Source: Verrucomicrobiota bacterium
GTDB lineage: Bacteria; Verrucomicrobiota; Verrucomicrobiia; Limisphaerales; SIBH01
Direction of reading: 5' to 3'
NCBI GenBank assembly: GCA_038208765.1
Contig: JBBQYK010000001.1
Location: forward strand, 1-45,622
DNA length: 45,622 nt
A program made the translations under genes and the position numbers. The notes below the pieces were generated by a model. It was given only the letters and a program-made list of their open reading frames with translations. It was not told the DNA's origin and made no database searches. Positions 2,639-22,273 of the stretch are shown here, piece after piece. The first letter of the stretch is position 1. Each line of letters begins with the position of its first letter.

Positions 2639-3112
2639 ATGACCAAGCTATCTCAAACCTACCGCTTCACTCCGCCCGCCGCGTCGCCGCTCTGCCCCTT
2701 GAACCGCTCGGCGCGCATCCTCGTGTTGGACAAAAGCGAGGTTCTGCGGGGGATCTGCGTGGAGCTGCTGGCCGAGCGCGGCTACGAGGTGGACGCCGCC
2801 GCCGATGGCCAAGCGGGCTGGGAAGCGCTGCTGGCCCGGCCGTATGACCTGCTCATCACCGAGCACGACCTGCCGAGGCTGAACGGACTGGAGCTGATCA
2901 AGAAGGTGTGCGCTTCCAGCCTGACGCTCCCGATCATCATTGCGTCCGGCTCACTTTCGTCCGGCGAATTGCGAAGGCATCCGGCCATCCAGATTGCCGC
3001 CGCGCTGCCCAAGCCTTTCTCGCCGAGGGAATTTGTCCAAACCGTGCAGGAGGTGCTCGGCGACGAGAGCCGGCTGAGTTTGACGCACCACCAGGATCTG
3101 CTCAGCGCATGA
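2639..3112 (+). CDS. CheY-like receiver-domain protein with non-canonical active site (Glu at the phospho-acceptor position)
   Basis: Paralogous to 1727..2209 (GYEVDAAADGQAGWEAL vs GYEVDAAEDGDAAWDAL). It has LDKSE instead of the acidic pair, and DLLITEHDLP instead of DLVITDNNMP. The conserved S (IIASGS) and K (LPKPF) are kept. Confidence 0.8.
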   Translation: MTKLSQTYRFTPPAASPLCPLNRSARILVLDKSEVLRGICVELLAERGYEVDAAADGQAGWEALLARPYDLLITEHDLPRLNGLELIKKVCASSLTLPIIIASGSLSSGELRRHPAIQIAAALPKPFSPREFVQTVQEVLGDESRLSLTHHQDLLSA

Positions 3113-3336: not shown

Positions 3337-3355
3337 GGGGTGACCACCCCATAGC
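3337..3355 (+). promoter_or_regulatory. GGGGTGACCACCCCATAGC box, copy 3
   Basis: Intergenic. Ends 36 nt before ATG 3392. Confidence 0.5.
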
Positions 3356-4699: not shown

Positions 4700-4828
4700 C
4701 TCACGCTGAAAGTTGTGCCTATGGTCTCGCTGCTTAAAAACGACAACGGCTTTTAAGATCAGGGATCAACCAAATGCTCGACCCGACGTGCGTGTGGTGC
4801 GGTGCCGGATCACAAAGCCAACACAACC

Positions 4829-7800: not shown

Positions 7801-10744
7801 CTTCACCACTCCGCTGGATGCGTGCTCGGTCAGCAGCAGCGTCATCGCGCGCGGCACTGGTGCCTGCAACTCGGCGGTCGTGACGAACAGCGCGTCGGCG
7901 ACGTGCCTGCTCGTGACGACTCCGCTCCTCACCGTCACTCAAACCTGTCCCACGCTGTCGGGCGGCGTCCTGACTTATTCCGGCACGGTGAGCAACGCCG
8001 GCAACATCTCGTTGACGAACGTCATCGTGAGAAATGATCGCAGCGGAGGCACCGTGGTGTTCTCCGTCGCGACGCTCGCTCCGCGGGCCCGGGCCAGCTT
8101 CACCGGCAGCTACACCGCGCTGGCGGACGCCTGCTCCCTCACTTCCACCGTCACCGCGACGGCGGCGGACAAATGCACCGGCAGCAATGTCGTCGCGACG
8201 TTCACCGCCACCTGTTCGTTGCCGACCAATCCCCGCATCGTCGTCACGCAAACCTGTCCGACGGTGCAGGTCGCTCCGGGCGGCACGCTGGTTTACAGCG
8301 GCACGGTCAGCAACGCCGGCAACTCGACCCTGAACAACGTGGTCGTGACGAGCGACCGCACGGGCGCGACCAACGTGTTCTTCATCGCCTCGCTCGCCCC
8401 GCGCGCGACGGCGAACTTCACCGGGAGTTACGTGGTGCTGAGTGATTGCTGCGTGGACACGAGCACGCTCACGGCGAGCGGCCGCGATTGTAACAACACG
8501 CTGGCCCGCGACACCGCCACGCGCACTTGCACGCTGCTCACCTCCCCGGGCATTACCGTCACCAAGGTCTGTCCGCTCGAAATGTGGAAGCCGCTCGCGC
8601 CGGGTGATCGGCTCACCTACAGCGGCGTGGTCAGCAACTCCGGCAACATCACGTTGACCAACGTCACCATCACGAGCACCGCCCCGACGAACGGCGTGCG
8701 CATCTTCGGTCCCATGACCTTGGCGGCGGGTGAATACGCGAACTACACCGCGTCGTTCATCATTCCCGCGGACTTCTGCGGCACGGACACGGTCACGGCC
8801 CGCGGCGTGAACATCTGCACGCTGTTGCCGGTCACGAGCAGCGCCACCACCACCTGCCCGATCCAGACGGCCCCGAGCATCACGGTCGTCAAAAACTGTC
8901 CGTCACAGCCGACGCCGCACGGCGGCCTGTTCGTCTTCACCGGCTCGGTGAGCAACTCCGGCAATGTCACGCTCACGAATGTCTTCGTGGTCAACAGTCA
9001 GCCGGCAGCGAATACGCCGGTCATCGGCCCCATCACGCTCGCGCCCGGAGCCAGGACCACCTTCTCCGGCAGTTACACCGCGCCGCTCGATTGCTGCGAA
9101 GTGACCGACACCCTCACGGCGCGCGGGGAAGATCGCTGCGCGGGCACGCTCGTGACTCACACGGCGACGCAAGTCTGCCCGTTGTCCACCTCGCCGAGCA
9201 TCGGCGTCACGCTGTCTTGTCCGGCCACGCCGGTGGCGGTCGGCGGCTTGTTTGAGTTCAGCGGCCTGGTCACCAACACCAGCGCCGAAGTGCTGACGAA
9301 TGTGTACGTGGTCAGCAACCTGCCCGTTCCGGGCACCGTGGTCGCCGGACCGATTGAACTCGCGGCGGGCGAAACCGAGTTCTTCACGGGCAGCTACACG
9401 GTCGCCGGCAACAGCGGCCTCATCGTCACGGCCTCCGCTCAGGACACCTGCCTGGGCCGCACCGTGAACGCGGCCGCGAACTGCTCCGGTTCCGTCAACC
9501 CGCCGAACCAGCCGCGGGCCATTACCGTGGTCATCAATGGCAACGGCACCGTGAGCGGGGTTGCCAACGGCCAGCTCTTGAACATTGGTCAGAACTACAC
9601 GGCCACGGCGACGCCAGCGGCGGGATCCACCTTTGTGAACTGGTCGGGCGGCGTGTCGGCGACGACACCGTCCCTGACCTTCACCATGCGGTCGAACCTG
9701 ATCTTGACGGCCAACTTCGCCTTCACCGGGACCAACGGCTCGAATGTGTTCATCCCGGTGGCGGGAGTGTTCAACGGCCTGTTCTACGACACGAACGATG
9801 TCCAGAACAGCAGCGCCGGATGTTTCACCCTGACGATGACGGTCGCCGGCACTTACAAGGCGACGATCAAAAACCAGAACAAGAGTTACGCCGTGAGGGG
9901 CACGTTCGACGCCAACGGCCAGGCGGTGAACACCATCGCGCGTTTGGGCACCACCCCGCTCACCGTGAACTGGCAGGGGAACTTCAGTGATTCCGACTAC
10001 ATCTCCGGCACGGTCAGTGATGGGACGGCGGTCGCCCATCTGGAGGGCGGTCGGGATGTCTTCACCACGGTCAATCCCACGCCGCAGGCCGGACGCTACA
10101 CGATGCTCCTTCCCGGCGTGGACGAGACGAGTTCACCCGCCGGCGATGGCTACGGCACGGTCGTGGTGGATGCGGACGGTGATGTGCATCTCCGTGGCCG
10201 ATTGGCCGACGGCAGCGTCCTGACCCAGAACGCCGCGCTCTCGAAGAACGGCGAATGGCCCGTGTGCATCTCGCTCTATCGCGGCGGCGGCCTGTTGATC
10301 GGCTGGCTCCAGTTTGCGAACGACGGCACGAATGACTTGGCCGGCACGGTGCGCTGGATCAAGCCGAGCCAGCCCACGAGCCCGCTCTACAAACCGGGCT
10401 TCAACGTGAACAGCGACGTGATTGGTTCACGCTATGTCGCGCCGGTCGGCACGAACAAGATGCTTAACATCACGGACGGGGTGGTCGTGCTGGGCGGCGG
10501 CAACCTGCCGGACAGCACCAATCCCGTCACCTTCGGCCCGAGCAGCCGGCTCGTGAACAACGGCACGAACGTGCTTCGGCTGGTCTTCGCGCCCGCCACG
10601 GGCCTGTTCAGCGGCTCGTTCCGGGAAACGGGCACGGCCCGCACCTACGCCATTAAAGGCGCGGTGCTCCAGCGCCAAAACTACGGCGCGGGCTACGCGC
10701 CCGGCACTAACCAGAGTGGACGTGTGGTCTTTGCCGCTCCGTAA
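4829..10744 (+). CDS. Giant secreted Cys-rich repeat protein (~13 DUF11-like ~105-aa repeats, an InlB-B-repeat-like module and a ~340-aa C-terminal domain of unknown function)
   Basis: A single ORF runs 4802-10744, with GTG at 4802 and the first ATG at 4829. The signal-like segment is MLLLALALLIFGPTRTNAQG. Repeats follow the pattern CP..PGG.L.YSGTVSN.GN.TL.NV.V.N......V.....LAPGA.A.F...Y..P...C.V...T..G.D.C.G..VT..A.ATC. The module ITVVINGNGTVSG...YTATATPAAGSTFVNWSGG follows the repeats. Confidence 0.9.
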   Translation: MKTPTRNQKSNSHPQSFHARRPHRFRCLHVPMLLLALALLIFGPTRTNAQGIPPGCSGSAIGISLFTSAPDVHIGDTLTYSVSVFNGIIGNPTSCDASNITASLTTPDGVVHPIVLRRTYLMHGQSDFYSNVVSYVARAQDVRPDGTLRATAEDTATIFQNDTPSTGGANQGVNTEVSLPCIQLFVQCVPSVGENGAIVFNGTITNCGNNTLVGVTVTNYVNGGAFPVFFPTNLLRGQSVSFTGSYVPDDPCQPSTATLVATGRDQFTANPRTVISTNLTTCSAVITRGIRVTKTCPVGPTAPGALLTFSGSVSNTGNITISNVVVVNNQPAPNTPVFTRASLAPGEVANFTGSYIAPTNCSVTDTLTATATGSCGVPVSSTASATCALTTAPAITVTEVCPITPGVSGGSSSYGGVVRNSGNITLNNVVVVSDRPAPNTVVLTVASLAPGASANYSANFTVPLNVCSVTTSVRATGNDSCTGTAVTNTATATCPITTAPAIAVTLACPATQSTNGGLITYTGTVRNSGNVTLNNIVVTAPQSSPSTVFTTPSLAPGASANFTASFTAPTSNCSVSSTVIATGSDNCTSASVTNTASATCTLATNPRLIVTQLCSASPVSPGGVLAYSGTVSNAGNVTVTNIVVTNDRTGTTPVFTTAQLLPGATTNFNGSYTVPANADCSITSTLTARGNDLCSGSVVTHAASATCSITGTPLINVTLNCPANSVVTGNSITFSGTVSNPGNVTLVNVTVVNNQASPSTVLTVATLAPGASANFNATFFSPANACSVSSTVTARGSNTCAGVFATASASATCTLLTSPALVVRQNCPVTPVSAGGVLAYSGSVSNAGNLTLTNVNVINNQTGTNIIYTAVTLLPGAVSNFTGSYTVPAGTLCTISSTATATGREICAGNTLTNTATATCTLATAPAIAVTLNCPVNPVAPGGTVSYTGNVLNSGNVTLNNVTVVNNQASPSTVLTVASLAPGASASFTASFTTPLDACSVSSSVIARGTGACNSAVVTNSASATCLLVTTPLLTVTQTCPTLSGGVLTYSGTVSNAGNISLTNVIVRNDRSGGTVVFSVATLAPRARASFTGSYTALADACSLTSTVTATAADKCTGSNVVATFTATCSLPTNPRIVVTQTCPTVQVAPGGTLVYSGTVSNAGNSTLNNVVVTSDRTGATNVFFIASLAPRATANFTGSYVVLSDCCVDTSTLTASGRDCNNTLARDTATRTCTLLTSPGITVTKVCPLEMWKPLAPGDRLTYSGVVSNSGNITLTNVTITSTAPTNGVRIFGPMTLAAGEYANYTASFIIPADFCGTDTVTARGVNICTLLPVTSSATTTCPIQTAPSITVVKNCPSQPTPHGGLFVFTGSVSNSGNVTLTNVFVVNSQPAANTPVIGPITLAPGARTTFSGSYTAPLDCCEVTDTLTARGEDRCAGTLVTHTATQVCPLSTSPSIGVTLSCPATPVAVGGLFEFSGLVTNTSAEVLTNVYVVSNLPVPGTVVAGPIELAAGETEFFTGSYTVAGNSGLIVTASAQDTCLGRTVNAAANCSGSVNPPNQPRAITVVINGNGTVSGVANGQLLNIGQNYTATATPAAGSTFVNWSGGVSATTPSLTFTMRSNLILTANFAFTGTNGSNVFIPVAGVFNGLFYDTNDVQNSSAGCFTLTMTVAGTYKATIKNQNKSYAVRGTFDANGQAVNTIARLGTTPLTVNWQGNFSDSDYISGTVSDGTAVAHLEGGRDVFTTVNPTPQAGRYTMLLPGVDETSSPAGDGYGTVVVDADGDVHLRGRLADGSVLTQNAALSKNGEWPVCISLYRGGGLLIGWLQFANDGTNDLAGTVRWIKPSQPTSPLYKPGFNVNSDVIGSRYVAPVGTNKMLNITDGVVVLGGGNLPDSTNPVTFGPSSRLVNNGTNVLRLVFAPATGLFSGSFRETGTARTYAIKGAVLQRQNYGAGYAPGTNQSGRVVFAAP
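5380..9500 (+). repeat. Array of ~13 coding repeats with 309-327 nt period
   Basis: The first Cys codon of successive units falls at 5390, 5714, 6029, 6350, 6668, 6989, 7307, 7628, 7946, 8255, 8570, 8897 and 9218. Confidence 0.9.
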
Positions 10745-11131: not shown

Positions 11132-11149
11132 GGGGTGGACACCCCAGAG
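11132..11149 (+). promoter_or_regulatory. GGGGTGGACACCCCAGAG box, copy 5
   Basis: Intergenic, upstream of the PRC/BON gene. Confidence 0.45.
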
Positions 11150-11238: not shown

Positions 11239-12516
11239 ATGAAACGAACACTGCCCATTCTCTGCACCGCCACTGCGGCGTCACTTCTGACGTTCACGGC
11301 GCTGGCTCAAGACAACGACACGTCCAAATCAGTCCGCCCGGATTATGCCCGCGACCGCATGGTCCATCCCATGCACGGCGACCGGCTGCACAGCGCGGCC
11401 AAGGCCAGCGACGTGATCGGCATGACCGTGAAAAATTATCAGGGCGAAAAACTCGGCACCGTGGAAGACCTCGCGGTGGATGTGTCCTCCGGCCGCATCG
11501 TGCAGGTGATTCTCTCCACCGGCGGAATCATCGGCGTGGGCGATCGTCTCTCGGCCGTGCCGCCGGGCGCGTTGCACTATGATGTCACGAACAAGGTCCT
11601 GCACCTGGACGCGAACAAGGAGAAGCTCCGGAGTGCGCCGGAATTCAAGACCGCGAAGTGGGCGGAGCATTCCGACACCGAGCACCTTTCCGCCGTCTAT
11701 ACTTATTACGGCCAGGAACCCGCGTTTAAATTCATCCACAAGGGCGACCTCAACGACGGCTCGGCCAACACCAGCTCCACACGGAACGCGGATGGCACCT
11801 GGAACAAGGCCCGGATGACGGGCGAGCGCCAGTGGATGATTCCCGCCGCGCGCCTCGGCCAGACTCAGAAGGCCTCGAAAATCACGGGCCTGCCCGTGAA
11901 GAACATGCAGGACGAAAAACTCGGCGCCGTGGACAACTTGCTGGTGGACGTGCAGGCGGGCCGCATCGTGGCGGTGATTGTCTCCTCCGGCGGATTCCTC
12001 GGCCTCGGCGAGGAACTCAGCGCCGTGCCGCCGACCGCGCTGAACTTCAACGCGAGCCATGACACGCTCCAGCTCGACGCCACGAAGGACCGGATGAGCG
12101 CGGCGCCGCATTTCAAGGCCGACCAGTGGCCGGACTTCAGCCAGCCCATGTATTCGGACCGCGTGTATCGCGCCTATCAGCAGGAGCCGTATTTCACCAC
12201 CAACCGGATGACGGACGCGGACAACACGGCGCGCAATGTGCGCGACCGCAACGACCGCACGCTCACGCCGCTCGACCAGGGCCGGAGCCAGGCCGACACG
12301 GACACCACGGCGCAAATTCGCAAGGGCATCCTCGACGGCAAGGACATGTCGATTAAGGCGAGGAACGTGAAAATCATCACCAACAACGGCCGCGTCACCT
12401 TGCGCGGGCCGGTCAGCAGCGCCGAGGAGAAGCGGATGATTGGCGCCATTGCCAACACCATCGCGCGCTCCGAGAACGTGGACAACCAACTGGAAGTCAC
12501 CGTCAAGAACGACTGA
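11239..12516 (+). CDS. Periplasmic protein with two PRC-barrel domains and a C-terminal BON domain
   Basis: Signal peptide MKRTLPILCTATAASLLTFTALAQ. Two copies of the pattern ...V.N..GEKLG.V.DL.VD...GRIV.VI.S.GG..G.G..LSAVPP.AL. C-terminal NVKIITNNGRVTLRGPVSSAEEKRMIGAIA is BON-like. Confidence 0.88.
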   Translation: MKRTLPILCTATAASLLTFTALAQDNDTSKSVRPDYARDRMVHPMHGDRLHSAAKASDVIGMTVKNYQGEKLGTVEDLAVDVSSGRIVQVILSTGGIIGVGDRLSAVPPGALHYDVTNKVLHLDANKEKLRSAPEFKTAKWAEHSDTEHLSAVYTYYGQEPAFKFIHKGDLNDGSANTSSTRNADGTWNKARMTGERQWMIPAARLGQTQKASKITGLPVKNMQDEKLGAVDNLLVDVQAGRIVAVIVSSGGFLGLGEELSAVPPTALNFNASHDTLQLDATKDRMSAAPHFKADQWPDFSQPMYSDRVYRAYQQEPYFTTNRMTDADNTARNVRDRNDRTLTPLDQGRSQADTDTTAQIRKGILDGKDMSIKARNVKIITNNGRVTLRGPVSSAEEKRMIGAIANTIARSENVDNQLEVTVKND

Positions 12517-12549
12517 TTCAGCCCGTTCCCGAAACATAAAACCAATCAG

Positions 12550-12596
12550 CTCCTGCGGCCGGGACGGCCGGCCGCAGGAGAATTTGCACTTTCTTC
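12550..12596 (+). terminator. Rho-independent-type terminator
   Basis: Perfect 13-bp stem CTCCTGCGGCCGG/CCGGCCGCAGGAG with a 5-nt loop, followed by a T-rich tail (AATTTGCACTTTCTTC). Confidence 0.65.
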
Positions 12597-12616
12597 AATT
12601 CAGCCCGCAGACTGAT

Positions 12617-12856
12617 GTGAAGCTCGCGACGGTAAAAACTTTGCTCCTGTCCGGTGCCCTGGCGACCGGCACCGCGCTCCTCTGGATGAGGCAGAGTCCG
12701 CCGCCGCCCCGCCCCTCCCTACACCCGGACCCGGCCCCTGAGGCCGCCCATGAAAACAGCGGAGGGCCCAAGCCCAAGTCACAGGCGGTGGCCGGCGCCC
12801 GCCATTTCGAAGGGCGCACGAATTTTTCCAAAGCACCGGCGGACCCGCCGCAATAA
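12617..12856 (+). CDS. Hypothetical small membrane-anchored or secreted Pro-rich protein (GTG start)
   Basis: Hydrophobic N-terminus VKLATVKTLLLSGALATGTALLW, followed by a Pro-rich tail. Third-position GC is moderately high. No homology recognised. Confidence 0.3.
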   Translation: MKLATVKTLLLSGALATGTALLWMRQSPPPPRPSLHPDPAPEAAHENSGGPKPKSQAVAGARHFEGRTNFSKAPADPPQ

Positions 12857-12933
12857 AAAAAACTCGCCGTGCCCCGTGCGCGCCGCTAGTTAGAGGGACG
12901 CATTCTGCGCTGGGACGACATACAAACGGGAGA

Positions 12934-13119
12934 ATGATGCATCCAAAAATTTGCCGTTGCTGCGGCCAATCCATCCCGGATCCGAGATCATCCAATCCCA
13001 ACGTGTGCGGGGGCTGCGAAGAGTGGTCAGGCGAAGTCGAGTGCGGCCCTTTGGAAAATCCGGCCGAGATGGCAAGCATCGCGAGTCACTCTAACGTGGG
13101 TCTCCTCCCTGAGCATTAA
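12934..13119 (+). CDS. Hypothetical small Cys-rich protein (CxxC...CxxC zinc-ribbon-like)
   Basis: MMHPKICRCCGQ...VCGGCEEW. It sits in a lower-GC patch, and codon bias is weaker than in neighbouring genes. Confidence 0.25.
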   Translation: MMHPKICRCCGQSIPDPRSSNPNVCGGCEEWSGEVECGPLENPAEMASIASHSNVGLLPEH

Positions 13120-13360
13120 ACGACGCCCTTCCCGACTTCAGCTTTCAGCTTTGCTATTTGACCCGGATCACCCAGTGGAACTGAAAATGGGTTCCGGATC
13201 CGCCAGCACGCGGCTGCGCGTGCCGTCCTCGCGCTCGACGATGATTTCCTCGCCGCGGATCGCCCTGCCCTCCCGGATCGTCCGGTGCCATCGGGTGCCG
13301 TCAGGGTGAAAGTTTTCCACGAACCGCACCAGAGGTCATGGTTCAGTTCGGATGTGCGCC

Positions 13361-13379
13361 GGGGTCAACACCCCATAAT
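13361..13379 (+). promoter_or_regulatory. GGGGTCAACACCCCATAAT box, copy 6
   Basis: Intergenic, + orientation, upstream of the CBM48-led gene string. Confidence 0.45.
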
Positions 13380-13424
13380 TGTCAGTCCCAATCGTAGGAA
13401 GAACCAAGCTCCGCCTCTCTCGGT

Positions 13425-13442
13425 AGGGCAACACCCCATAAC
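13425..13442 (+). promoter_or_regulatory. AGGGCAACACCCCATAAC box, copy 7
   Basis: Intergenic. Ends 87 nt before ATG 13530. Confidence 0.45.
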
Positions 13443-13529
13443 CCACGCGAGATCTTTGCTGCATCATGGCGACGGGGAAATGGAATCGCCCTCCGAGTGC
13501 AAGGGCTTCCACCCTCAGAATTACTGGCT

Positions 13530-13895
13530 ATGAAACATAACAAGAACCACGACAACGCCCCGAACGCCGGCCCGCAACTGGTGCCCGTGCATTTTGAATT
13601 CACGCATCCCACCGCGCAGAGCGTCTGCGTCGCGGGGTGCTTCAACCACTGGAAACCCGAAGCCAAGGCGCTGCATCCCGCCGGTGACGGGCGCTGGGTG
13701 AAGGAGACGGTGCTGCCGCCGGGCACCTACGAATACTGCCTGGTCGTGGATGGCGAGTGGATGCCCGATCCGCTGGCGAAAGATCATGTCCCCAACCCGT
13801 ACGGTGGCCGGAACTCGCTGCTCACCGTGCCTTCGCCGGAAGTCACGCATCTCGTCAACGCGCAGAATGTGCCGCTGCCTGACATCTTGCGATGA
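13530..13895 (+). CDS. Small stand-alone CBM48 / AMPK-beta-type glycogen-binding-domain protein
   Basis: VPVHFEFTHPTAQSVCVAGCFNHWKPEA..L.....G.W.....LPPGTYEYCLVVDGEWMPDP matches the E-set/CBM48 pattern. Confidence 0.8.
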   Translation: MKHNKNHDNAPNAGPQLVPVHFEFTHPTAQSVCVAGCFNHWKPEAKALHPAGDGRWVKETVLPPGTYEYCLVVDGEWMPDPLAKDHVPNPYGGRNSLLTVPSPEVTHLVNAQNVPLPDILR

Positions 13896-14623
13896 TCCCC
13901 AACGATCGAACGACCCACTTTTTGTCCCGCCTGGAAACCGGTTTCCGCATGGATGCCGCGCGCCTGGAAACGCTGGAGCAGGATTTAACGGCGGCGTTGC
14001 AGCGCGCCCGGCATTTCGGCACGGAACAGGGCGGTGATTGGAACACGGGCTGGCAACAGCAGTGGGACCACGTGGAAGAACTGCTGCGCCGCATCCGCTG
14101 GCTGGTGGATGAGATGGAAAGTTCCATCGACAGCAGCGACCCCGGCCGGCTCAAAGCCTCGCTGGCGTCGTGGGAAACGATTCAAGCGGAGGACGCGAAA
14201 CTGGTGGCCGCGCTGGCCGCGCTGCGCACGCACGCCGTCGGCTTGAACCCGGACGTGCGGGACGACTGGAGCCTGCTGGCCCGCACGCTGGAGTCGCATG
14301 TGGAAACGATCCGTTCCTGTGCGCAGGCGTTGCGCATCAAGATCGAGCTGCTGCAAAAGCACTCCAAGGCCGAAGTGGATCAACTGGTGCTGGAGATTCT
14401 CGCCCGGCTCCCGGACCGCGCGCGGACAGAAGGAATGAGCGCCGAGATTTACGCGCAGGAATACGCCGCCGCCGCCCAGGAACTGGACAAAGAGCATCAC
14501 AAGTTTCTGGGCTTCGTGGACGCGGTCAAAGCCTTGCTGCTCTGGGTCGAATCGCCCGAGGAACGGACGGACAAGAACCTGTCGAAGCAGACGGCACCAG
14601 CCCTGCCCGTCCCGATTTTATGA
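13892..14623 (+). CDS. Hypothetical all-helical (coiled-coil-like) protein
   Basis: The ATG overlaps the previous stop (ATGA at 13892-13895). Codon bias is strong. No recognised domain. Confidence 0.7.
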   Translation: MIPNDRTTHFLSRLETGFRMDAARLETLEQDLTAALQRARHFGTEQGGDWNTGWQQQWDHVEELLRRIRWLVDEMESSIDSSDPGRLKASLASWETIQAEDAKLVAALAALRTHAVGLNPDVRDDWSLLARTLESHVETIRSCAQALRIKIELLQKHSKAEVDQLVLEILARLPDRARTEGMSAEIYAQEYAAAAQELDKEHHKFLGFVDAVKALLLWVESPEERTDKNLSKQTAPALPVPIL

Positions 14624-14889
14624 AACAAGATAAACATCCCCAGACTCCGAAACCGGCGGACGCCTCCCAGCCCACGGAGGCGGAGTGGAATCAAGAGCGC
14701 ATGGACTTCGCGCCCACAGCGGACGAAGTCGCCCGCCGCGCCTACTTCAGTTATCTGAATCACGGTGCGGGTCCCGGACACGATGTGCAGCACTGGCTCG
14801 TGGCCGAGGCGGAACTGCTCGCGGAACGCAACCTCACGCGCGTGCACGGATTTCCGAATCACACCCACAAACTCCCGCAACCAACATGA
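14620..14889 (+). CDS. DUF2934-family small protein
   Basis: ATGA overlap with the previous gene. The motif ARRAYFSYLNHGAGPGHDVQHWLVAEAEL matches the RAY..W...G...G...DW..AE signature as I remember it. Confidence 0.7.
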   Translation: MKQDKHPQTPKPADASQPTEAEWNQERMDFAPTADEVARRAYFSYLNHGAGPGHDVQHWLVAEAELLAERNLTRVHGFPNHTHKLPQPT

Positions 14890-15356
14890 AGAATCCATTT
14901 ATCAACCCCACCATCCAAGCCCGAGATCTGACGAAACAAGCCCCGCACCGTGCCCGCGACCGGCTTGCCGGCTTCGCCATTGCGCGCCGGACCATCGACA
15001 AATGCCGCGCCAGCGTGGCGGGCACCTTGGGCGAGTTTCACTACGACTGTCCGCTCGACAACCAGCTCTTCAGTTTCAAGGGCATCACGGCCGATCAATT
15101 CAAGGCGGTCGTGCAGGCCGCGAAAAGCGATGAAGAGATCGGCGCGTGGCTCCAGGCCAACGGCACGGCGAAAACGCCGGCGGAAATCCAGGCCTGGTCG
15201 GAGAAGATGGATGCCGGGAGCATGATGAAGAACCCGGAGAAGCGCGCCTATTTCATCGCCGAGTGTTCCAAGCTCGGACTGAATCCGGAGACGAACACCA
15301 CCTTCGACTGGCTGGATGCGGATGACCGCGAGTGCTTCCCTCATGCAACCGCGTGA
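14886..15356 (+). CDS. DUF5069-family protein
   Basis: ATGA overlap with the previous gene. The motifs LAGFAIARRTIDKCRASVAGTLGEFHYDCPLDNQLFSFKGI and SDEEIGAWL resemble DUF5069, recognised from memory. Confidence 0.7.
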   Translation: MKNPFINPTIQARDLTKQAPHRARDRLAGFAIARRTIDKCRASVAGTLGEFHYDCPLDNQLFSFKGITADQFKAVVQAAKSDEEIGAWLQANGTAKTPAEIQAWSEKMDAGSMMKNPEKRAYFIAECSKLGLNPETNTTFDWLDADDRECFPHATA

Positions 15357-15374
15357 CCCTTAAAATGGAAATTT

Positions 15375-15584
15375 ATGAAACCAGCCGCCACCAAATACTC
15401 GAAGCCACGTCCCCCCGCTTATACCACGGTCGTCCACACACCGGGGCCGCTCCTCAAGTCCGCCCCGCTCGCACCCCAGTCGTTAAAGCGGGAGAACATT
15501 TTCTCCCAGTCGCGCGACACCCGCGAAGATCGCAGCGCGCGCCAGATGAAGAACCACCCGCAAACTTTTTCACATGGACACTGA
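15375..15584 (+). CDS. Hypothetical small basic protein (69 aa)
   Basis: By hand count, about 72% of codons end in G/C, like real genes here. It starts 18 nt after the previous gene and ends 10 nt before the next. No homology recognised. Confidence 0.35.
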   Translation: MKPAATKYSKPRPPAYTTVVHTPGPLLKSAPLAPQSLKRENIFSQSRDTREDRSARQMKNHPQTFSHGH

Positions 15585-15594
15585 TCATTAACGC

Positions 15595-16005
15595 ATGAAA
15601 ACCAATCCTTTGAAGCAGGGTATCCTGATCGAGCATTCCGCCGGCGTGGGCACGGTGACGCGCACGATGGTCCGGGAGCGCGCGGTGGAACTGGCGGTCA
15701 TCGACGGACGCACGGCGCAGGACGTCACGAAATCCGACTTGGAACAGGCCAGGCGGGAACTGACCAGCGAACCGGGCAGCGACGGAAACGAGCTGCTGCT
15801 CGAAACTGTGCCCGAATCCGAACGCTGGGAAGTGGTGTCCGGCTCCACCGGATTCAAAGTGCCCGCCGCCGCCAGCGAAGACGAGGATGACGAGGGCCGC
15901 AGCGACAACGCCCGGCTCGTGGAAGAAGGCGTCGCCGGGGCGGATCATGAACAGAGACTCCAGGCGACCCGAGAAGCAGCCAAAAAGGAGGAAGGCGCGC
16001 CTTGA
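15595..16005 (+). CDS. Hypothetical acidic protein (136 aa)
   Basis: Strong codon bias. Contains VRERAVELAVIDGRTAQDVTKSDLEQARREL and an acidic tail. No recognised domain. Confidence 0.65.
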   Translation: MKTNPLKQGILIEHSAGVGTVTRTMVRERAVELAVIDGRTAQDVTKSDLEQARRELTSEPGSDGNELLLETVPESERWEVVSGSTGFKVPAAASEDEDDEGRSDNARLVEEGVAGADHEQRLQATREAAKKEEGAP

Positions 16006-16051
16006 GCCAACCTCGTCACCTTGAAGAATACCCCGTTCGGTGCCATGCCAT

Positions 16052-16477
16052 ATGAGCCGATCCACACCACTCATGCGTGATTTCGCCGGGCGCCTCATCA
16101 GCCATGAGGCACGGGAGAAAAAGCCTGCCAAGAGCCAGGATCCGAGGGTCTTTCAAAGTTGTGAGAAGCTGCGTTTGCATCTGACGACCATCATGGGAAG
16201 CCCCGGTTTTCGCACCCTGCTGTTGCGCACGCTCGCGCTCGCCACCCGGGAAGTTCCCTGGCTGCGCGCGGTGCGGGTCAAGGCGGACGGGTCTTTGGAA
16301 GGTCTGGAGGAACTTCAAGCGCAGCACGACCGGGACACCTTCCTCGAAGGCGGAGTGGTCCTGCTCGCCCACTTGCTCGGACTGCTGGTGGCTTTCATCG
16401 GAGGCAATTTAACGGTGCGGCTGGTGCGCGAGATCTGGCCGAAGATTTCGCTCCACGATTTGAAACTAGAAAACTGA
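16052..16477 (+). CDS. Hypothetical protein immediately upstream of the kaiC-like gene
   Basis: ORF in coding-type composition, with an alternative GTG start at 16040. Ends 7 nt before the kaiC-like ATG. Hydrophobic segment VVLLAHLLGLLVAFIGG. Confidence 0.6.
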   Translation: MSRSTPLMRDFAGRLISHEAREKKPAKSQDPRVFQSCEKLRLHLTTIMGSPGFRTLLLRTLALATREVPWLRAVRVKADGSLEGLEELQAQHDRDTFLEGGVVLLAHLLGLLVAFIGGNLTVRLVREIWPKISLHDLKLEN

Positions 16478-16484
16478 GGAATCC

Positions 16485-18056
16485 ATGAAAAAACAAAAAC
16501 CTGCGGCCAAACCCGCTGCGCCGGGAAAAGGCGTGAGCAAGGAGTCCAAGGTCAAGATCCGCAAGCTGCCGACCGGCGTGCGCGGGCTGGACGAAATTCT
16601 CGGCGGCGGCATCCCGGAATTTTCTTTCAACATCATCGCCGGCACGCCGGGCTGCGGCAAAACCACGCTGGCGCACCAGATCCTTTTTGCCAACGCCACG
16701 GTGAAGAAACCCGCGCTCTATTTCACCGTCCTGGGCGAACCCGCCCTGAAGATGCTGCGCTATCAGCAACAGCATTCTTTCTTCGACGAATCCAAGCTGG
16801 GCCGGGCCGTCCGCTTCGTCAACTTGAGCGATGTGCTCATGGAGGGGGACTTGAGCGCGGTGCTGGATGAGGTCATCAGGCAGGTCACGGCGGCCAGCCC
16901 GGGCATCGTGGTGGTGGACTCGTTTCGCAACGTCGTGCGCCAGGCCATCGCCACCCCGAGCGAGGCGGACATGCAATGGTTCATCCAGAGCCTCGCCCAG
17001 TTCCTCACCAGTTGGGAAGCTACGACGTTTCTGGTCGGTGAATATGTCCCGGAAGAGATGCGCGACAATCCAGTGTTCACCGTCGCCGACGGACTGTTCT
17101 GGCTGTCGCAATTGACGGAGCGGAATTCCGTGGTGCGCAAATTGCAAATCATCAAATTGCGCGGGCAGGCTTCGGTGCCGGGTTTGCACACCTTCCGCAT
17201 CAACGACGACGGGTTGCAGGCCTTCTCGCGCACGTTGGGATTGGGCGGCAAAAGTATGAACCCGTCGCGGAGACGGCGGCGGCTGTCCCTGGGCATTCCC
17301 GAAATGGACAAGATGCTGAACGGCGGCCTGCGGGAAGGCGACAGCCTCCTCGTGGCCGGACCTTCCGGCACGGGAAAGTCGGCGCTGGCCACGCACTTTA
17401 TTGCCGAAGGATTGCGGCGAGGGGAAGCGGCCATCATGGCGCTCTTTGAAGAACGCCCGGAAGGCTACGCGGATCGCGCGGCCAGTCTGGGTTTGCATTT
17501 CAAAACGCCGCAGGAGCAGGGAAAACTCGAACTGCTTTACCTGCGGCCGCTTGATCTTTCGGTGGATGAAATCACGCAGCAGATTCTCGATGCCGTCAAA
17601 CGGGTCGGCGCCAAACGGCTGGCGATTGATTCGCTGGTCGGTTTTGAAATGGCGTTGGCACCCGGTTTCCGCGAGGACTTTCGCGAATCGCTCTACCGCT
17701 TGATCGTGGCGTTGACTGGTGCGGGGGTCACAATTCTGACCACGGTGGAAGTGGAAGACAACTTCACCGCGCTGCAGTTCAGTCACTACGCAATTTCGTT
17801 TCTCACGGATGACATCATCCGGCTGCGCTATGTGGAAATTGACGGCCAGCTTCGCAAAGTGATGGTCGTGATCAAAATGCGCGGCGGCAATCACAGCAAG
17901 GACATCCGCGAATACATCATCACGGACAAGGGCGTGGTAATCATCCTCCCGCGGATGAAGGATTACGAGGGGTTGACCACCGGGATACCCCATCGCACCG
18001 GCCCGCGCCCGGCGCAGGCCGACGAGGCCGCGCCGGAACCCAAGGCGAAAAAGTAG
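16485..18056 (+). CDS. kaiC: KaiC-family double RecA-like ATPase
   Basis: Two KaiC/RecA-type halves are present. Their Walker A motifs are GTPGCGKTT and GPSGTGKS, and each half carries GVRGLDEILGGGIP or GIPEMDKMLNGGL. The C-terminal YVEIDGQLRKVMVVIKMRGGNHSKDIREY aligns with the cyanobacterial KaiC CII region. Confidence 0.92.
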   Translation: MKKQKPAAKPAAPGKGVSKESKVKIRKLPTGVRGLDEILGGGIPEFSFNIIAGTPGCGKTTLAHQILFANATVKKPALYFTVLGEPALKMLRYQQQHSFFDESKLGRAVRFVNLSDVLMEGDLSAVLDEVIRQVTAASPGIVVVDSFRNVVRQAIATPSEADMQWFIQSLAQFLTSWEATTFLVGEYVPEEMRDNPVFTVADGLFWLSQLTERNSVVRKLQIIKLRGQASVPGLHTFRINDDGLQAFSRTLGLGGKSMNPSRRRRRLSLGIPEMDKMLNGGLREGDSLLVAGPSGTGKSALATHFIAEGLRRGEAAIMALFEERPEGYADRAASLGLHFKTPQEQGKLELLYLRPLDLSVDEITQQILDAVKRVGAKRLAIDSLVGFEMALAPGFREDFRESLYRLIVALTGAGVTILTTVEVEDNFTALQFSHYAISFLTDDIIRLRYVEIDGQLRKVMVVIKMRGGNHSKDIREYIITDKGVVIILPRMKDYEGLTTGIPHRTGPRPAQADEAAPEPKAKK

Positions 18057-18065
18057 AGGGGATTT

Positions 18066-19073
18066 ATGGTTGCGAAACTCACACCAGGCATTTCTGAAGA
18101 GGCCGAAGCCTCGCCGGTCCATGAAAGGATGCTCGCGATGAACGAGGCGTTAATTCGTGGATCCGTGCAGCAGCATGAACTCACCGAGGCGGCTGAGATA
18201 TTGAACGAACAACTGCGTTTGGAAATCGCCGAGCGCCTGCGGGCCGAGGAGGCGCTGCACCGGGCGCAAGGGCTACTGGCCGACCGGGCTGTGCGGCTGG
18301 AAGAAGCCGTCTCAGCACGCACCCTGGAACTGACCGCGACCAACCAGCAACTGGAAGCCTTCGTCTATTCCATCGCGCATGACCTGCGCGCGCCCCTGCG
18401 GGCCATGCAGGGTTTTTCGACGCTGCTGGTCGCGGAGGCGGGCGCAGCCTTGAGCGCCCAGAGCCAGGACTATGCCGCGCGCATCAGCAAATCGGCGCAA
18501 TTCATGGATGCGCTGTTGATTGATCTGCTGGACTTCAGCCGCGTCAGCGAGCAGCGCGTGGAACTGACGGCGGTGAACCTGGAGACGGTCGTGGCATCCG
18601 TGCTGGCCCGTTTGCCACACGACCTCCAGGGAAAACCCGCGCGCGTGGAAAGTTCCGGGCCGTGGCCGGTCGTGCTGGCCCATGAGGCCACCCTGGCCCA
18701 GGTGTTGTTCAACTTGGTGAGCAATGCGGTAAAATTTATCCGGCCGGACGTGTCCCCCGTGGTGCGGCTGCGCGCGGAAGAACGAATGTCGGGCGAAGGC
18801 GCGATGGCCCTCGACTTTGGCCCCTCGACTCCCGACCGCCGCGTGGTCCGCGTGTGGGTGGAAGACAACGGCTCGGGCATCGCTCCCCGGCATCAAGAGC
18901 AAATCTTCCGGATCTTCACCCGCCTGAACGGGGACAAGTATGAGGGGACGGGCATCGGTCTGGCGATTGTCCAGAAAGGCGTCGAACGCATGGGAGGACG
19001 CGTGGGCGTGGAATCCGTGCCCGGCCAGGGCAGCCGTTTTTGGTTTGAGTTGCGACCTTCTCCCACCAGCTGA
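18066..19073 (+). CDS. Histidine kinase (coiled coil + HisKA + HATPase_c) with no recognisable sensor or TM domain
   Basis: H-box FVYSIAHDLRAPLRAMQGF, N-box LFNLVSNAVKF, and EDNGSGI and GTGIGLAIV boxes. The first ~95 aa are helical only. Confidence 0.9.
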   Translation: MVAKLTPGISEEAEASPVHERMLAMNEALIRGSVQQHELTEAAEILNEQLRLEIAERLRAEEALHRAQGLLADRAVRLEEAVSARTLELTATNQQLEAFVYSIAHDLRAPLRAMQGFSTLLVAEAGAALSAQSQDYAARISKSAQFMDALLIDLLDFSRVSEQRVELTAVNLETVVASVLARLPHDLQGKPARVESSGPWPVVLAHEATLAQVLFNLVSNAVKFIRPDVSPVVRLRAEERMSGEGAMALDFGPSTPDRRVVRVWVEDNGSGIAPRHQEQIFRIFTRLNGDKYEGTGIGLAIVQKGVERMGGRVGVESVPGQGSRFWFELRPSPTS

Positions 19074-19552
19074 TGAACGAACCACAAACATTCCTCCTGG
19101 TGGACGACAGCGTGGACAATCTCTTCCTCATGCGCGCGGCCTTTAAAATGGCCAAGTGCCACCACCCGCTGCAAGAAGTCCATGATGGCGAAGAAGCGAT
19201 TGCCTACCTGAACGGCGAAGGTCCGTACGGTGACCGGAAGATATTTCCGCTGCCGACGGTCATGCTGCTGGATCTGAATATGCCCAAGAAGGGCGGCTTC
19301 GAGGTCCTGGAGTGGGTGCGCGCGCAGCCGGTGCTCAAACGCCTGACGGTCATCATCCTGACCGCCTCCACGCGCCGCGAAGACGTCGCGCAGTCCTTCG
19401 ATCTGGGCGCGAACTCGGTCTTGGTCAAACCGACCAGCCTGGCCACCTTGGCGGCGATGATGCGATGTCTGTGTGCCTGGGTGGAGATCAGTCAATTTCC
19501 GCCGCTTATTGAGGCGGGAGGAAATGAGAAGCACACGCAGCAGGTGAAATGA
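19073..19552 (+). CDS. Single-domain CheY-like response regulator
   Basis: The start shares one base with the kinase stop (TGATG). Receiver residues: LLVDDS, MLLDLNMPKKGG, IILTAS and VLVKP. Confidence 0.9.
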   Translation: MNEPQTFLLVDDSVDNLFLMRAAFKMAKCHHPLQEVHDGEEAIAYLNGEGPYGDRKIFPLPTVMLLDLNMPKKGGFEVLEWVRAQPVLKRLTVIILTASTRREDVAQSFDLGANSVLVKPTSLATLAAMMRCLCAWVEISQFPPLIEAGGNEKHTQQVK

Positions 19553-19621
19553 TCTTAGTCCGATAGTAACCTTCCAGCCGAGGCGTTGAACTCCGATATT
19601 TGGCACTGATGGGATTTACCT

Positions 19622-21043
19622 GTGAACGAAACACCCGAGCGATTTGACTGGGATGTCGCCATCCTCGGCGGCGGCAGCGCCGGCTACGCGGCGGCACGGA
19701 CGGCGGCGGCGGATGGTTTGCGAACGGTCGTAATCGAGGACGCCGAGGAAGTGGGCGGCCTGTGCATCCTGCGCGGCTGCATGCCTACGAAGGCGCTGCT
19801 CTACGCCGCTGAAGTTCTGCATCACACCCGTCATGCGGAGCCGTGGGGACTGCGCGTGGAGAAGGTGAGTTTCGACTTCGCGAAAGTCATGGCCCGCAAG
19901 GACGCGCTCATCCAGGAATTCGCCGACGAGCGCCGCGCGCAACTGGCGGGTGGCAAGTTCCAATTCATCCGCGCTCGCGCGAGTTTTCTCGATCCGCACA
20001 CGGTCGCGCTGAACCACGGAGGTTCGCTCACCGCCGCGCATTTCGTCATCACCACCGGCTCCACGGTCGGCCCGGCTCCCCTGCCCCAGCTTCGCGACGT
20101 GGGCTATCTCACGAGCGATGAGGTGATGAAGCTGACGCAACTCCCGAAATCTCTGATTGTGCTCGGCGGCGGCGCGGTAGCGGTGGAACTGGCGCAGTTC
20201 CTCGCGCGCTTCGGCGTCCACGTCACGCTGCTCCAGCGCGGCGCGCACCTCCTGGGTGAGTTCGACACTGATGCGGCGCTGGAACTGGAGAAGGTCTTCC
20301 GCCGCGAAGGCATCAATCTTTTCACCAACACGGAACTGACCGGTGCGCAGCGCGACGGGGCGCGCAAAACCGTTTCGTTTCGGCAGCACGACCAGCCCGC
20401 GTCCGTCACGGCGGAGGAAATTCTCTTCGCCCTCGGTCGGGTGCCGAACACCGCGTCGCTAAATCTCGCGAAGGCCGGCGTGGCCACCGAACGCGGGCGC
20501 ATTGTGGCGAACGACTTCATGCAGACGAGCACGCCGCACATTTACGCCGCCGGCGATTGCACCGGGCCGCACGCCATCGTGCATCTCGCCGTGCGGCAGG
20601 GCGAAGTGGCGGCCCACAACCTCGCGCAACCGAAGGCGCGGCGGCGGATGGATGACCGGCTGCTGCTCGCGGTGATTTTTACCGAGCCGCAAGTCGCGTG
20701 CGTCGGACTCACCGAAAAGACGGCGGCGGCGCGCAACATTCCCTGCCTCACCGCGCGCCATCCGTTCCGTGACCACGGCAAATCGCTGATCATGGAAGCA
20801 CGGGACGGCTTCGTAAAACTTCTCGCTGATCCGCAGACTGGGGAAATTCTCGGCGGCGCTTGCGTCGGGCCGTCCGGCGGCGAACTGATTCACGAGATCG
20901 TCGTGGCGATGTCGGAACGGATGACCGTCCACAAACTCGCGGCGGTGCCGCACTACCATCCCACCCTGGCCGAAATCTGGACGTATCCGGCGGAAGAACT
21001 GGCGGCGCGCATCCCGGTCGCGCGGCAGGGTAACACCCCATAG
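19622..21043 (+). CDS. FAD-dependent pyridine nucleotide-disulfide oxidoreductase (dihydrolipoyl dehydrogenase / mercuric reductase-like class I)
   Basis: GTG start. FAD fold VAILGGGSAGYAAA, redox-active CILRGC, a second Rossmann LIVLGGGAVAVE, and a dimerisation-domain tail HYHPTLAEIW. Confidence 0.88.
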   Translation: MNETPERFDWDVAILGGGSAGYAAARTAAADGLRTVVIEDAEEVGGLCILRGCMPTKALLYAAEVLHHTRHAEPWGLRVEKVSFDFAKVMARKDALIQEFADERRAQLAGGKFQFIRARASFLDPHTVALNHGGSLTAAHFVITTGSTVGPAPLPQLRDVGYLTSDEVMKLTQLPKSLIVLGGGAVAVELAQFLARFGVHVTLLQRGAHLLGEFDTDAALELEKVFRREGINLFTNTELTGAQRDGARKTVSFRQHDQPASVTAEEILFALGRVPNTASLNLAKAGVATERGRIVANDFMQTSTPHIYAAGDCTGPHAIVHLAVRQGEVAAHNLAQPKARRRMDDRLLLAVIFTEPQVACVGLTEKTAAARNIPCLTARHPFRDHGKSLIMEARDGFVKLLADPQTGEILGGACVGPSGGELIHEIVVAMSERMTVHKLAAVPHYHPTLAEIWTYPAEELAARIPVARQGNTP

Positions 21044-21044
21044 C
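21028..21044 (+). promoter_or_regulatory. GGGTAACACCCCATAGC box, copy 8
   Basis: Its TAG (21041-21043) is the stop codon of the oxidoreductase gene. Ends 74 nt before ATG 21119. Confidence 0.45.
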
Positions 21045-21118
21045 GGGGACGGGCCGCTCGCGTAGCCTTGCTCCAGTTCACGAGGGCAAAAACTGCCTTC
21101 CAACACGAAAGAAACTTT

Positions 21119-21226
21119 ATGCACCTATTGCTCACGCCGGTTCTCGCCGACATCTACTGGATTGGCGGCGGCTCCATCGGCCTCATTCTGCTTATCGTGG
21201 TCATCGTTCTCTTGGTGCGTCGTTAA
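21119..21226 (+). CDS. Possible 35-aa single-TM peptide
   Basis: MHLLLTPVLADIYWIGGGSIGLILLIVVIVLLVRR is below the ORF-track cutoff. It has a Gly-rich turn followed by a hydrophobic helix and an RR anchor. Preceded by box copy 8. Confidence 0.3.
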   Translation: MHLLLTPVLADIYWIGGGSIGLILLIVVIVLLVRR

Positions 21227-21281
21227 ACCCACGCCGTTCCCCGCAGGCTTCAGGCGGGCGTGGAACGGATGACTCAATTCC

Positions 21282-21698
21282 ATGATGAAAACTTTGTTCA
21301 CTGCAGAGGCCATTTCCAAGGGCGCACGTTCGGGGATCGTTCATTCACCGGATCATTTGTTGAATGTCAGCTTGGGCAATCCGTTGGAGCCGGGCCTCGA
21401 GAAGCGCGGCCCCAATCCCGAACTGCTGTTCGCGGGAGCCTATTCCGCCTGCTACCACGGCGCACTCGTCAACGCCGCCAAGAAGCTCGGCACGCCCGTC
21501 GTGGATTCCACGGTGCGCGCCTTGGTGAGCTTGGTGGAAGACGATCAGGGCGGCTATCGCCTGGCGGTGGAACTTCATGCCCAGCTTCCGGGCCTCGAAA
21601 CTGCCCAGGCCCAGCGCATCATGGAAGCAGCGCATCAAACCTGCCCCTACTCCAAGGCGCTGCGCGGCGACACGGACGTGAAGCTGGTCGTGGACTAA
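21282..21698 (+). CDS. ohr: Organic hydroperoxide resistance protein (OsmC/Ohr family)
   Basis: NPELLFAGAYSACYHGAL and AHQTCPYSKALRG carry the two conserved Ohr cysteines. The ~138-aa length fits the family. Confidence 0.88.
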   Translation: MMKTLFTAEAISKGARSGIVHSPDHLLNVSLGNPLEPGLEKRGPNPELLFAGAYSACYHGALVNAAKKLGTPVVDSTVRALVSLVEDDQGGYRLAVELHAQLPGLETAQAQRIMEAAHQTCPYSKALRGDTDVKLVVD

Positions 21699-21716
21699 TT
21701 CGCCGCAAACTAGGGC

Positions 21717-22037
21717 ATGGAGAAAAAATTTATGAAAAACAAAACACTGATGGTTTTCACACTCGCCGCCGCCGCCTTCGTCGTGGGTTGCGACAAACAG
21801 AAAGCGGCCATCGACGAAAACAAGGAAGCCACGATCAACGCGATTGACAGTCGCAAGGACGCCGTGGACGCCGCCGCCAAGAGCGCGAAAAAAGAGGCGG
21901 AAATTAGCGCGACGCTCGACAAGTCGAGGATTGAAGCAGAAAAGGACGCCGCCCAGGCGCGGCTCGACGCGGCCAAACAGAAAGCCGAGGCCGAAGCTAA
22001 GGCCGAGAAGGCCCGGGTGGACGCCGCGCAGAAGTAA
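21717..22037 (+). CDS. Lys/Ala/Glu-rich lipoprotein
   Basis: Signal peptide with lipobox FVVGC. The mature part is low-complexity and helical (AKKEAE...[10 protein letters not shown]). ATG 21732 is an alternative start. Confidence 0.65.
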
Positions 22038-22063
22038 GGGCGCGCCGCCTGGAAGCATCCACC

Positions 22064-22273
22064 ATGAAAGATCCGGTCTATAAACTCATCGAACTCACGG
22101 GCACCTCGACCGCTTCCATCGAGGACGCCGTGGGGAAGGCCATCAAGCGGGCGCACAAAACGGTCAAGAACCTGCGCTGGTTTGAGGTCGTGGAAACGCG
22201 TGGCAACATTGACAAGGGCCAGGTTCAGCACTGGCAGGTAACCATCAAAGTCGGTTTCTCCGTGGAGAACTGA
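22064..22273 (+). CDS. Dodecin-family flavin-binding protein
   Basis: [47 protein letters not shown] is the typical dodecin sequence pattern, and the 69-aa length fits. Confidence 0.88.

Follow-up and report, generated by a model that had tools for sequence, protein, structure and literature searches.

Many bacteria without a clock nonetheless encode KaiC homologues, which raises the question of how these proteins are regulated when KaiA and KaiB are absent. Among described systems, the nearest is the network of environmental Pseudomonas, in which KaiC homologues bind a neighboring kinase and receiver, peak in expression in stationary phase, accumulate and are phosphorylated through that phase, and affect resistance to osmotic and oxidative stress; its authors propose that it acts as a timer (Terrettaz et al., bioRxiv 10.1101/2022.01.26.477890). 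Here, we examined a string of ten genes at positions 13530 to 19552 of a 45,622-bp contig from a Verrucomicrobiota bacterium (JBBQYK010000001.1; "the window" below is this whole contig), in which six genes, labeled g1 to g6, are followed by g7, a KaiC-like ATPase, a kinase, and a receiver (Table 1). An earlier note on this DNA had read the string as a KaiC-centered signaling device with the small proteins as its inputs or adaptors. That idea is supported for the KaiC unit and g7 but not for g1 to g6. The string is probably a mosaic of two functional units, g1-g6 and g7-KaiC-kinase-receiver, which became adjacent by insertion of the latter.

The second unit resembles the Pseudomonas network in that a double-domain KaiC without KaiB, a kinase, and a receiver-only regulator are encoded next to each other on one strand in one predicted operon, and it resembles the P. 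putida type in having one phosphorylatable Ser at the S431 position. The two differ in that g7 always precedes kaiC here, whereas Terrettaz et al. list no such partner, and in that the site pair is Ser-Phe rather than SS, TY, or SY and the kinase has no PAS domain. The claim that no described system has this composition is therefore correct for the string as a whole, a composition that is an accident of the insertion, but not for the KaiC-kinase-receiver core. The proposed logic is also that of cyanobacterial KaiC-SasA-RpaA, in which the state of the KaiC hexamer is passed to a partner kinase and then to a response regulator. Unlike that system, the locus has neither KaiA nor KaiB, its regulator lacks a DNA-binding domain, Phe replaces T432, and the kinase has a short helix and no Pfam domain before HisKA, in contrast to the KaiB-like thioredoxin-fold domain of SasA. 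The KaiBC hourglass of Rhodopseudomonas and Rhodobacter (PDB 8dba and 8fwi) likewise has a noncyanobacterial double-domain KaiC, but that system depends on KaiB, and here g7 stands in its place. Finally, g1-g6 and its relatives form arrays, with a shared promoter motif, of the very small protein families that make up bacterial general-stress or stationary-phase islands (Dps, OsmC, CsbD, Usp, PRC-barrel, BON, and DUF883/ElaB-type proteins), although no stress function has been assigned to CBM48, DUF2934, DUF5069, g2, g5, or g6.

The evidence for two units comes from surveys anchored on either half of the string. A scan of one genome per species gave 80 KaiC loci (KaiC identity, 71 to 86%) from Verrucomicrobiota, Burkholderiales, Caulobacterales, Planctomycetota, Myxococcales, and others, against which all proteins of the window were run by tblastn. 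A g7 gene lay directly upstream of KaiC in every locus with room for it (76/76), at a median spacing of -4 nucleotides (nt); g7 is an obligate partner of this KaiC subfamily. Downstream of KaiC, the N-terminal motif of the kinase was found in 66 of the 80 loci, and a receiver domain was found in 41 of the 54 with enough sequence, as a separate gene in 21 and otherwise fused to the kinase. Genes g1 to g6 were essentially missing from the KaiC loci. Of the 67 loci in which 600 nt or more precede g7, only 1 had DUF2934 and DUF5069 genes near the cassette, and there on the opposite strand (L052); two others had single genes of this set 6 to 9 kb away (L024 and L005).

The reciprocal picture was obtained from 80 DUF5069 loci collected in a metagenome scan (DUF5069 protein identity, 61 to 77%). 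DUF2934 was upstream of DUF5069 in 62 of these, g5 was placed between DUF5069 and g6 in 52, and g6 was present in 53. Given this co-occurrence, the conserved upstream module is DUF2934-DUF5069-g5-g6, with g6 as its last gene. A Dps/ferritin gene separated DUF2934 from DUF5069 in 38 loci, a CBM48 gene was near the cluster in only 11, and g2 was present in none. Neither g7 nor KaiC was found in any of the 80, of which 37 reach 600 nt or more past g6 and 24 reach 2.5 kb or more. The possibility that CBM48-DUF2934-DUF5069 travels with kaiC-kinase-receiver is thus contradicted from both sides (1/67 and 0/80), and the two halves are not neighbors in the related DUF5069 loci, an outcome that the note itself had named as refuting its reading. 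The boundary between them had also been misplaced, at 15356/15595; given that g5 and g6 go with DUF5069, it lies at 16005/16040.

Close relatives, found via homologues of g2, point to how the two units became adjacent. In L162, which is 83 to 85% identical to the window in DNA, the order is g2-DUF2934-DUF5069-g5-g6-oxidoreductase-35-amino-acid (aa) peptide-OsmC-Dodecin-Usp, with no CBM48 gene (g1) upstream of g2 and with the stop of g6 overlapping the start of the oxidoreductase gene. By blastn, L162 2300-4374 aligned to window 13901-15952 and L162 4489-7075 aligned to window 19642-22273, and the extra 3.7 kb in the window (15953-19641) comprises the genes for g7, KaiC, the kinase, and the receiver and no others. 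Given that L162 is colinear on both sides of this segment but lacks it, the segment is an insertion. The four-gene cassette was inserted within a g6-oxidoreductase operon, and the oxidoreductase gene was the original downstream neighbor of g6, displaced by the cassette. L161 (88% identity) likewise has no KaiC after g6, and in L163 the order is CBM48-DUF883-g2-PRC...oxidoreductase-OsmC-Dodecin-Dps. At the borders of the cassette, we looked for terminal repeats and target-site duplications, but the only repeats present were at chance level. The cassette is present in a conspecific metagenome contig (L168; ~96.5% DNA identity), where KaiC is 99.6% identical. In that contig, a 336-nt deletion at L168 7125-7523 (window 14974-15309) takes out most of DUF5069, whereas the remainder of the string is preserved.

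The same four genes are found by themselves on a Paracoccus liaowanqingii plasmid (NZ_CP040765.1, 4109-7227; L170), between IS110/IS5 and IS21 transposase genes of insertion sequence (IS) elements. The plasmid g7 homologue is 38% identical to g7, its KaiC has 523 aa and is 61% identical to that of the window, its kinase is a 248-aa HWE-family protein, and a receiver gene is present; the names given by the Prokaryotic Genome Annotation Pipeline (PGAP) to this cassette are only "hypothetical protein" and "ATPase domain-containing protein." We compared the region upstream of g7 (window 16006-16051) in 65 loci and found a weak pattern, GCGYNTTTCC(N2)ATG, even across phyla, but no shared promoter beyond this pattern and, in most of the loci, no Shine-Dalgarno sequence before g7. 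The first g7 codons are nearly identical in DNA across loci, which fits recent horizontal spread. From its distribution, g7-KaiC-kinase-receiver appears to be a self-contained, horizontally mobile cassette.

Within the cassette, KaiC has two tandem RecA-like domains that each carry a Walker A motif (GTPGCGKTT, 16641-16667; GPSGTGKSA, 17358-17384), placing it in the KaiC family (PF06745). The catalytic Glu-Glu pair of the CII domain is in FEERP (17445-17459), and alignment to solved KaiC structures identified Ser438, in ISFLTDD (17793-17813), as the equivalent of S431. Across the 80 loci, the two Walker A motifs, the Glu-Glu pair of CII, and the Ser at the 431 position do not vary, nor does a Phe at the T432 position, such that ISF takes the place of the IST of the clock protein.

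The kinase had been described as lacking an input domain. There is indeed no Pfam sensor or PAS domain, but the protein is not input-less, given that it carries a strongly conserved N-terminal motif of ~40 residues. This motif (residues 19-57, nt 18120-18236; consensus AMNEAL-LGSLRQHELTEAAE-LNAQL-EI-ERK) reads as helical from its sequence. In the 1.76 Mb of sequence gathered here, every occurrence is downstream of KaiC, preceded by 0, 1, or 2 PAS domains. It is found on two kinase families, HisKA and HWE, and the HWE kinase of the Paracoccus plasmid shares only its first ~40 residues with the HisKA kinase of the window (HDQLLRDMNAALLESSIRQHEMAEQAQ versus HERMLAMNEALIRGSVQQHELTEAAE). We infer that this N-terminal helix couples these kinases to KaiC. 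Querying a large protein database with this kinase motif (51 aa) returned no candidates. In three loci (L043, L022, and L039), the signature helix occurs twice downstream of KaiC, ~1.8 kb apart, representing either one long multi-PAS kinase or two successive kinases. The receiver retains the full acid pocket and has no output domain; its DD pair is at 19094-19111, the phospho-acceptor Asp is in MLLDLNMP (19262-19285), and the T/K motifs are present.

We found over 550 homologues of g7, and its family comprises 3483 representative clusters; every member is a stand-alone protein of ~140 to 150 aa, and a profile search of 1.84 billion representative proteins showed no fusions hinting at function. 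The AlphaFold2 (AF2) model of g7 is confident and helical, with a small hairpin (predicted local distance difference test [pLDDT], 84.7; predicted template modeling score [pTM], 0.81). No Pfam, NCBIfam, or PADLOC match was found for g7; the best hit of its model in a fold search against the PDB had an E value of 0.97, and its profile gave only chance-level matches to Talin and BzdN among PDB sequences. We considered g7 as a relative of KaiA or KaiB, but no such relationship was detectable by PDB fold or profile search. Our literature searches returned no description of the g7 family, and both this family and the N-terminal helix of the kinase are apparently undescribed so far.

For the KaiC unit, we propose that the KaiC-like protein would form a hexamer that hydrolyzes ATP and autophosphorylates on Ser438. 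The g7 protein, always present and presumably translationally coupled to KaiC, would bind KaiC and set or read its state, in place of the KaiA and KaiB of the clock. The state of KaiC would then be conveyed to the kinase via the conserved N-terminal helix, and the kinase would phosphorylate the stand-alone receiver, which could serve as a phosphate sink or pass the signal on through contacts with other proteins. The scheme would yield a stress switch or slow timer, not a circadian clock, with a slow shift in phosphorylation state proposed by analogy with Pseudomonas. Gene linkage, the insertion, and the conserved catalytic motifs are observed here; the protein contacts are deduced from linkage, and the timer function is a proposal. 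We consider this explanation, two units with the above mechanism for the second, to be likely.

Several observations weigh against it. Stress-type genes are found close to the KaiC cassette in 9 of the 80 loci and in two further loci, L165 and L166, a raw count taken without a background set. In L166, genes for CsbD, a CBM48 protein, DUF883, and a GlgB-like CBM48 enzyme are directly upstream of g7. A looser functional tie between KaiC cassettes and stress-type genes may therefore exist, and the stress-type neighbors of some cassettes fit a shared physiological theme. No promoter or terminator was found at the g6-g7 junction. In the CI domain of KaiC, just one of the pair of catalytic glutamates is retained (VLGEPA). 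Residues 106-124 of g7 form a hydrophobic helix (Kyte-Doolittle 2.22 over 19 residues), which could be a membrane anchor instead of part of a soluble regulator. Lastly, the PAS domain of the P. putida kinase is sufficient for KaiC binding (Terrettaz et al., bioRxiv 10.1101/2022.01.26.477890), and the kinase of the window has no PAS domain. L166 is the only other case in which a CBM48 protein adjoins the cassette; its KaiC, at 6434-8005 of a metagenome contig, is annotated as three separate genes, probably because of frameshifts in the assembly.

How the cassette is transcribed in its present place may depend in part on a promoter-associated box. As the earlier note had observed, two copies of a GGGGTG..CACCCC box precede the string. 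We found that they belong to a directional palindromic motif, GGGGTGAACACCCCATAG, of which the window holds 5 close copies against 0.26 expected, or 7 with relaxed matching. All seven are upstream of genes on the + strand, namely a receiver-only gene, a short ORF followed by a second receiver-only gene, the ORF at 3392, PRC-BON, g1, and the 35-aa peptide/OsmC. The exact 11-mer of the box was present in 28 of the 80 DUF5069 loci versus 4 of the 80 KaiC loci, and a box was found 100 to 103 nt upstream of CBM48 homologues in L085, L087, L088, L095, L125, L139, and L163. Typically, the box is followed after ~20 nt by a TAnnnT element and, ~7 nt on, by ATG, a spacing that suggests leaderless or near-leaderless transcripts. 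Copy 2 is likely the promoter or operator of the g1-led transcript. To our knowledge, the box matches no described stress sigma-factor consensus. It appears to mark a putative regulon of small stress-type genes. PRC-barrel/BON genes upstream and oxidoreductase and OsmC genes downstream flank the string in the window (Pfam), and Dps, Usp, DUF883, Dodecin, and CsbD join them in the arrays of relatives; g1 to g6 seem to be part of a lineage-specific array of changing composition, made up of small genes of the stationary-phase or stress type.

Given that relaxed matching found no further box between 13426 and 21028, the cassette may be read through from the g1 promoter. The string could then be an operon by accident, made of functionally separate units but with KaiC switched on together with the stress regulon. 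We regard this as close to an even prospect, if slightly under it, and it is compatible with the two-unit explanation rather than opposed to it. The g6-g7 gap is short and the stretch from 13426 to 21028 has no terminator; the overlap of g6 and the oxidoreductase gene in L162 places the insertion site inside an operon; boxes are found 316 nt (L001) and 634 nt (L004) upstream of g7 in two other loci; and the expression of kaiC in Pseudomonas is maximal in stationary phase. However, the sequence upstream of g7 is diverse in relatives, suggesting that the cassette has its own promoter or acquires one.

A true KaiC clock or hourglass for daily cycles, as in the KaiBC systems of Rhodopseudomonas and Rhodobacter, is improbable. 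In its favor are the double-domain architecture, the conserved ATPase and kinase motifs with Ser at the S431 position, and the fact that the best PDB sequence matches are KaiC proteins, with cyanobacterial ones ahead of 8dba/8fwi (4e-43). On the other hand, the invariant Phe replaces T432, and the protein scored below the cutoffs of the NCBIfam clock equivalogs NF006799 and TIGR02655 (249.5 versus 408 bits and 165.8 versus 546 bits). KaiA and KaiB are missing from the window, and a tblastn search with an approximate KaiB query found KaiB in 1 of the 80 KaiC loci (L011) and not in the window. The hosts are heterotrophic soil and peat lineages.

Still less likely, and very unlikely in our judgment, is the reading of the earlier note that all ten genes form one KaiC-centered device fed with carbohydrate or energy status by CBM48, DUF2934, DUF5069, and the other small proteins. 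The shared strand, the overlaps and short gaps, the lack of a convincing terminator, and the presence of boxes only upstream of g1 are what such a device would lead one to expect, and the arrangement is kept in the conspecific contig. The CBM48-DUF883-GlgB-like genes directly upstream of g7-KaiC in L166 and the stress-type genes near 9/80 KaiC loci also speak for it. Against this stand the DUF5069 loci, none of which has g7 or KaiC; the KaiC loci, which lack g1 to g6 save for one opposite-strand and two distant cases; the relative L162, which lacks the cassette at the exact site; the conspecific contig, in which DUF5069 is mostly deleted while KaiC is 99.6% identical; and the plasmid, on which the cassette stands alone between IS elements. 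These findings leave no support for CBM48, g2, DUF2934, DUF5069, g5, or g6 as inputs or adaptors of KaiC. Tight same-strand packing can also result when a cassette inserts into an existing operon, and a functional system can therefore not be recognized from spacing alone. An antiphage defense system, or some other cargo of mobile elements employing a KaiC-like ATPase, would agree with the horizontal spread across phyla, the IS flanks on the plasmid, and weak PADLOC matches of KaiC to the mad8 and IetA ATPase models, but it is the least credible alternative, given that these matches are generic to P-loop proteins and the other nine proteins have none, that the partners are a canonical kinase and receiver with no nuclease or effector, and that a KaiC identity of 71 to 86% across phyla indicates strong purifying selection.

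The structural description of the string in the earlier note was accurate. Its ten open reading frames (ORFs) are on the + strand at the coordinates given; ATGA overlaps occur at 13892, 14620, and 14886; the gaps that follow are 18, 10, 34 or 46 (for g7 starting at GTG 16040 or ATG 16052), 7, and 9 nt; and the kinase and receiver genes overlap by 1 nt in TGATG at 19073. The public record of the contig contains nine of the ten proteins as gene calls with identical sequences; for g7, it has the later start ATG 16073 (134 aa). The absence of a terminator hairpin inside the string was also borne out, given that a consensus scan yielded 6 sites in total versus 8.6 expected from shuffled sequences, none of them intergenic; on the + strand there were two weak sites, both within the kinase gene. 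A sigma-70 promoter scan found zero sites, and an Rfam search of 12500-20000 found no RNA family. The domain assignments were all confirmed by Pfam (CBM48, DUF2934, DUF5069, two KaiC domains, HisKA plus HATPase_c, and Response_reg). No Pfam family matched g2, g5, g6, or g7, and NCBIfam and PADLOC scans added nothing for the small proteins.

Among the products of the upstream unit, g1 scored 43.4 bits for AMPK1_CBM against a Pfam gathering cutoff of 26.8 (E value, 4e-11) and matched CBMs of AMPK beta among PDB sequences; by family membership it is a CBM48/AMPK-beta glycogen-binding module, for which glycan binding is predicted. We found 42 homologues of g2, which has no Pfam domain; its AF2 model is all-helical (pLDDT, 79.8), and a fold search against the PDB returned generic helical bundles only and no match. 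The g4 protein matched PDB entry 3omd ("uncharacterized protein"; 1e-23). Our literature searches found no functional reports on DUF2934 or DUF5069. We considered that g6 could be a hidden DUF2934 protein, but BLASTP of g3 against g6 gave no alignment.

Table 1. Features of the ten-gene string and its surroundings (positions in the window)
Feature	Position	Strand	Description
g1	13530-13895	+	Stand-alone CBM48/AMPK-beta-type glycogen-binding module (predicted), 121 aa
g2	13892-14623	+	Helical-bundle protein, 243 aa, lineage-restricted
g3	14620-14889	+	DUF2934 protein, 89 aa; Pfam 2.8e-9
g4	14886-15356	+	DUF5069 protein, 156 aa; Pfam 2e-34
g5	15375-15584	+	Conserved 69-aa protein, no family; gene call in public record
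g6	15595-16005	+	Conserved acidic protein, 136 aa, no family
g7	16052-16477	+	Helical protein, ~141 aa; alternative starts GTG 16040 (145 aa) and ATG 16073
KaiC-like ATPase	16485-18056	+	Double-domain, 523 aa; Pfam KaiC x2, 2.7e-67
Kinase	18066-19073	+	HisKA/HATPase_c, no PAS; H-box 18369-18398
Receiver	19073-19552	+	Single-domain response regulator, 159 aa; Pfam Response_reg 1.5e-17
Oxidoreductase	19622-21043	+	Pyridine-nucleotide disulfide oxidoreductase (Pfam); synteny with L162 and L163
Inserted segment	15953-19641	+	3.7 kb missing from the syntenic relative L162
Box copy 1	13363-13378	+	Palindromic, promoter-associated, GGTCAACACCCCATAA
Box copy 2	13426-13441	+	~100 nt upstream of the g1 start
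Seven GGGGTGAACACCCCATAG boxes	1677-1692, 2205-2220, 3339-3354, 11134-11149, 13363-13378, 13426-13441, 21028-21043	+	Relaxed matching

Several neighboring features were also observed. Receiver-only regulators are encoded at 1727-2209 (160 aa) and 2639-3112 (157 aa), the first with a box 34 nt upstream of its ATG, and a similar regulator recurs in 11 of the DUF5069 loci. A giant ORF of 1980 aa (4802-10744) with internal DNA repeats is upstream of the stress cluster, and its counterpart in L168 has CLIPPER, CARDB, and Flg_new_2 domains. Between PRC-BON and the g1 boxes, a 61-aa ORF (12934-13119) carries two Cys pairs (CRCCG...CGGCEEW) and is zinc-ribbon-like, with no Pfam match. The gene for the 35-aa hydrophobic peptide is conserved (window ~21116-21223, L162 5967-6074, and L168 13046-13153) and sits between OsmC and the box at the downstream end of the oxidoreductase gene, just past that box; in L031 and L096, boxes are likewise followed by very small hydrophobic ORFs.

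In summary, the interest of this locus rests mainly on g7 and the coupling helix of the kinase. More tentatively, and as a possibility to which we give limited weight, g7 may represent an undescribed family, with thousands of members, of obligatory regulators of a KaiC that works without KaiA and KaiB, the kinase helix may be a portable docking element through which this KaiC addresses kinases of different families, and the cassette as a whole may be a mobile stationary-phase timer that plugs into stress regulons in many phyla. Both g7 and the helix are testable parts, and they may be the missing regulator and the coupling interface of KaiB-less KaiC proteins.

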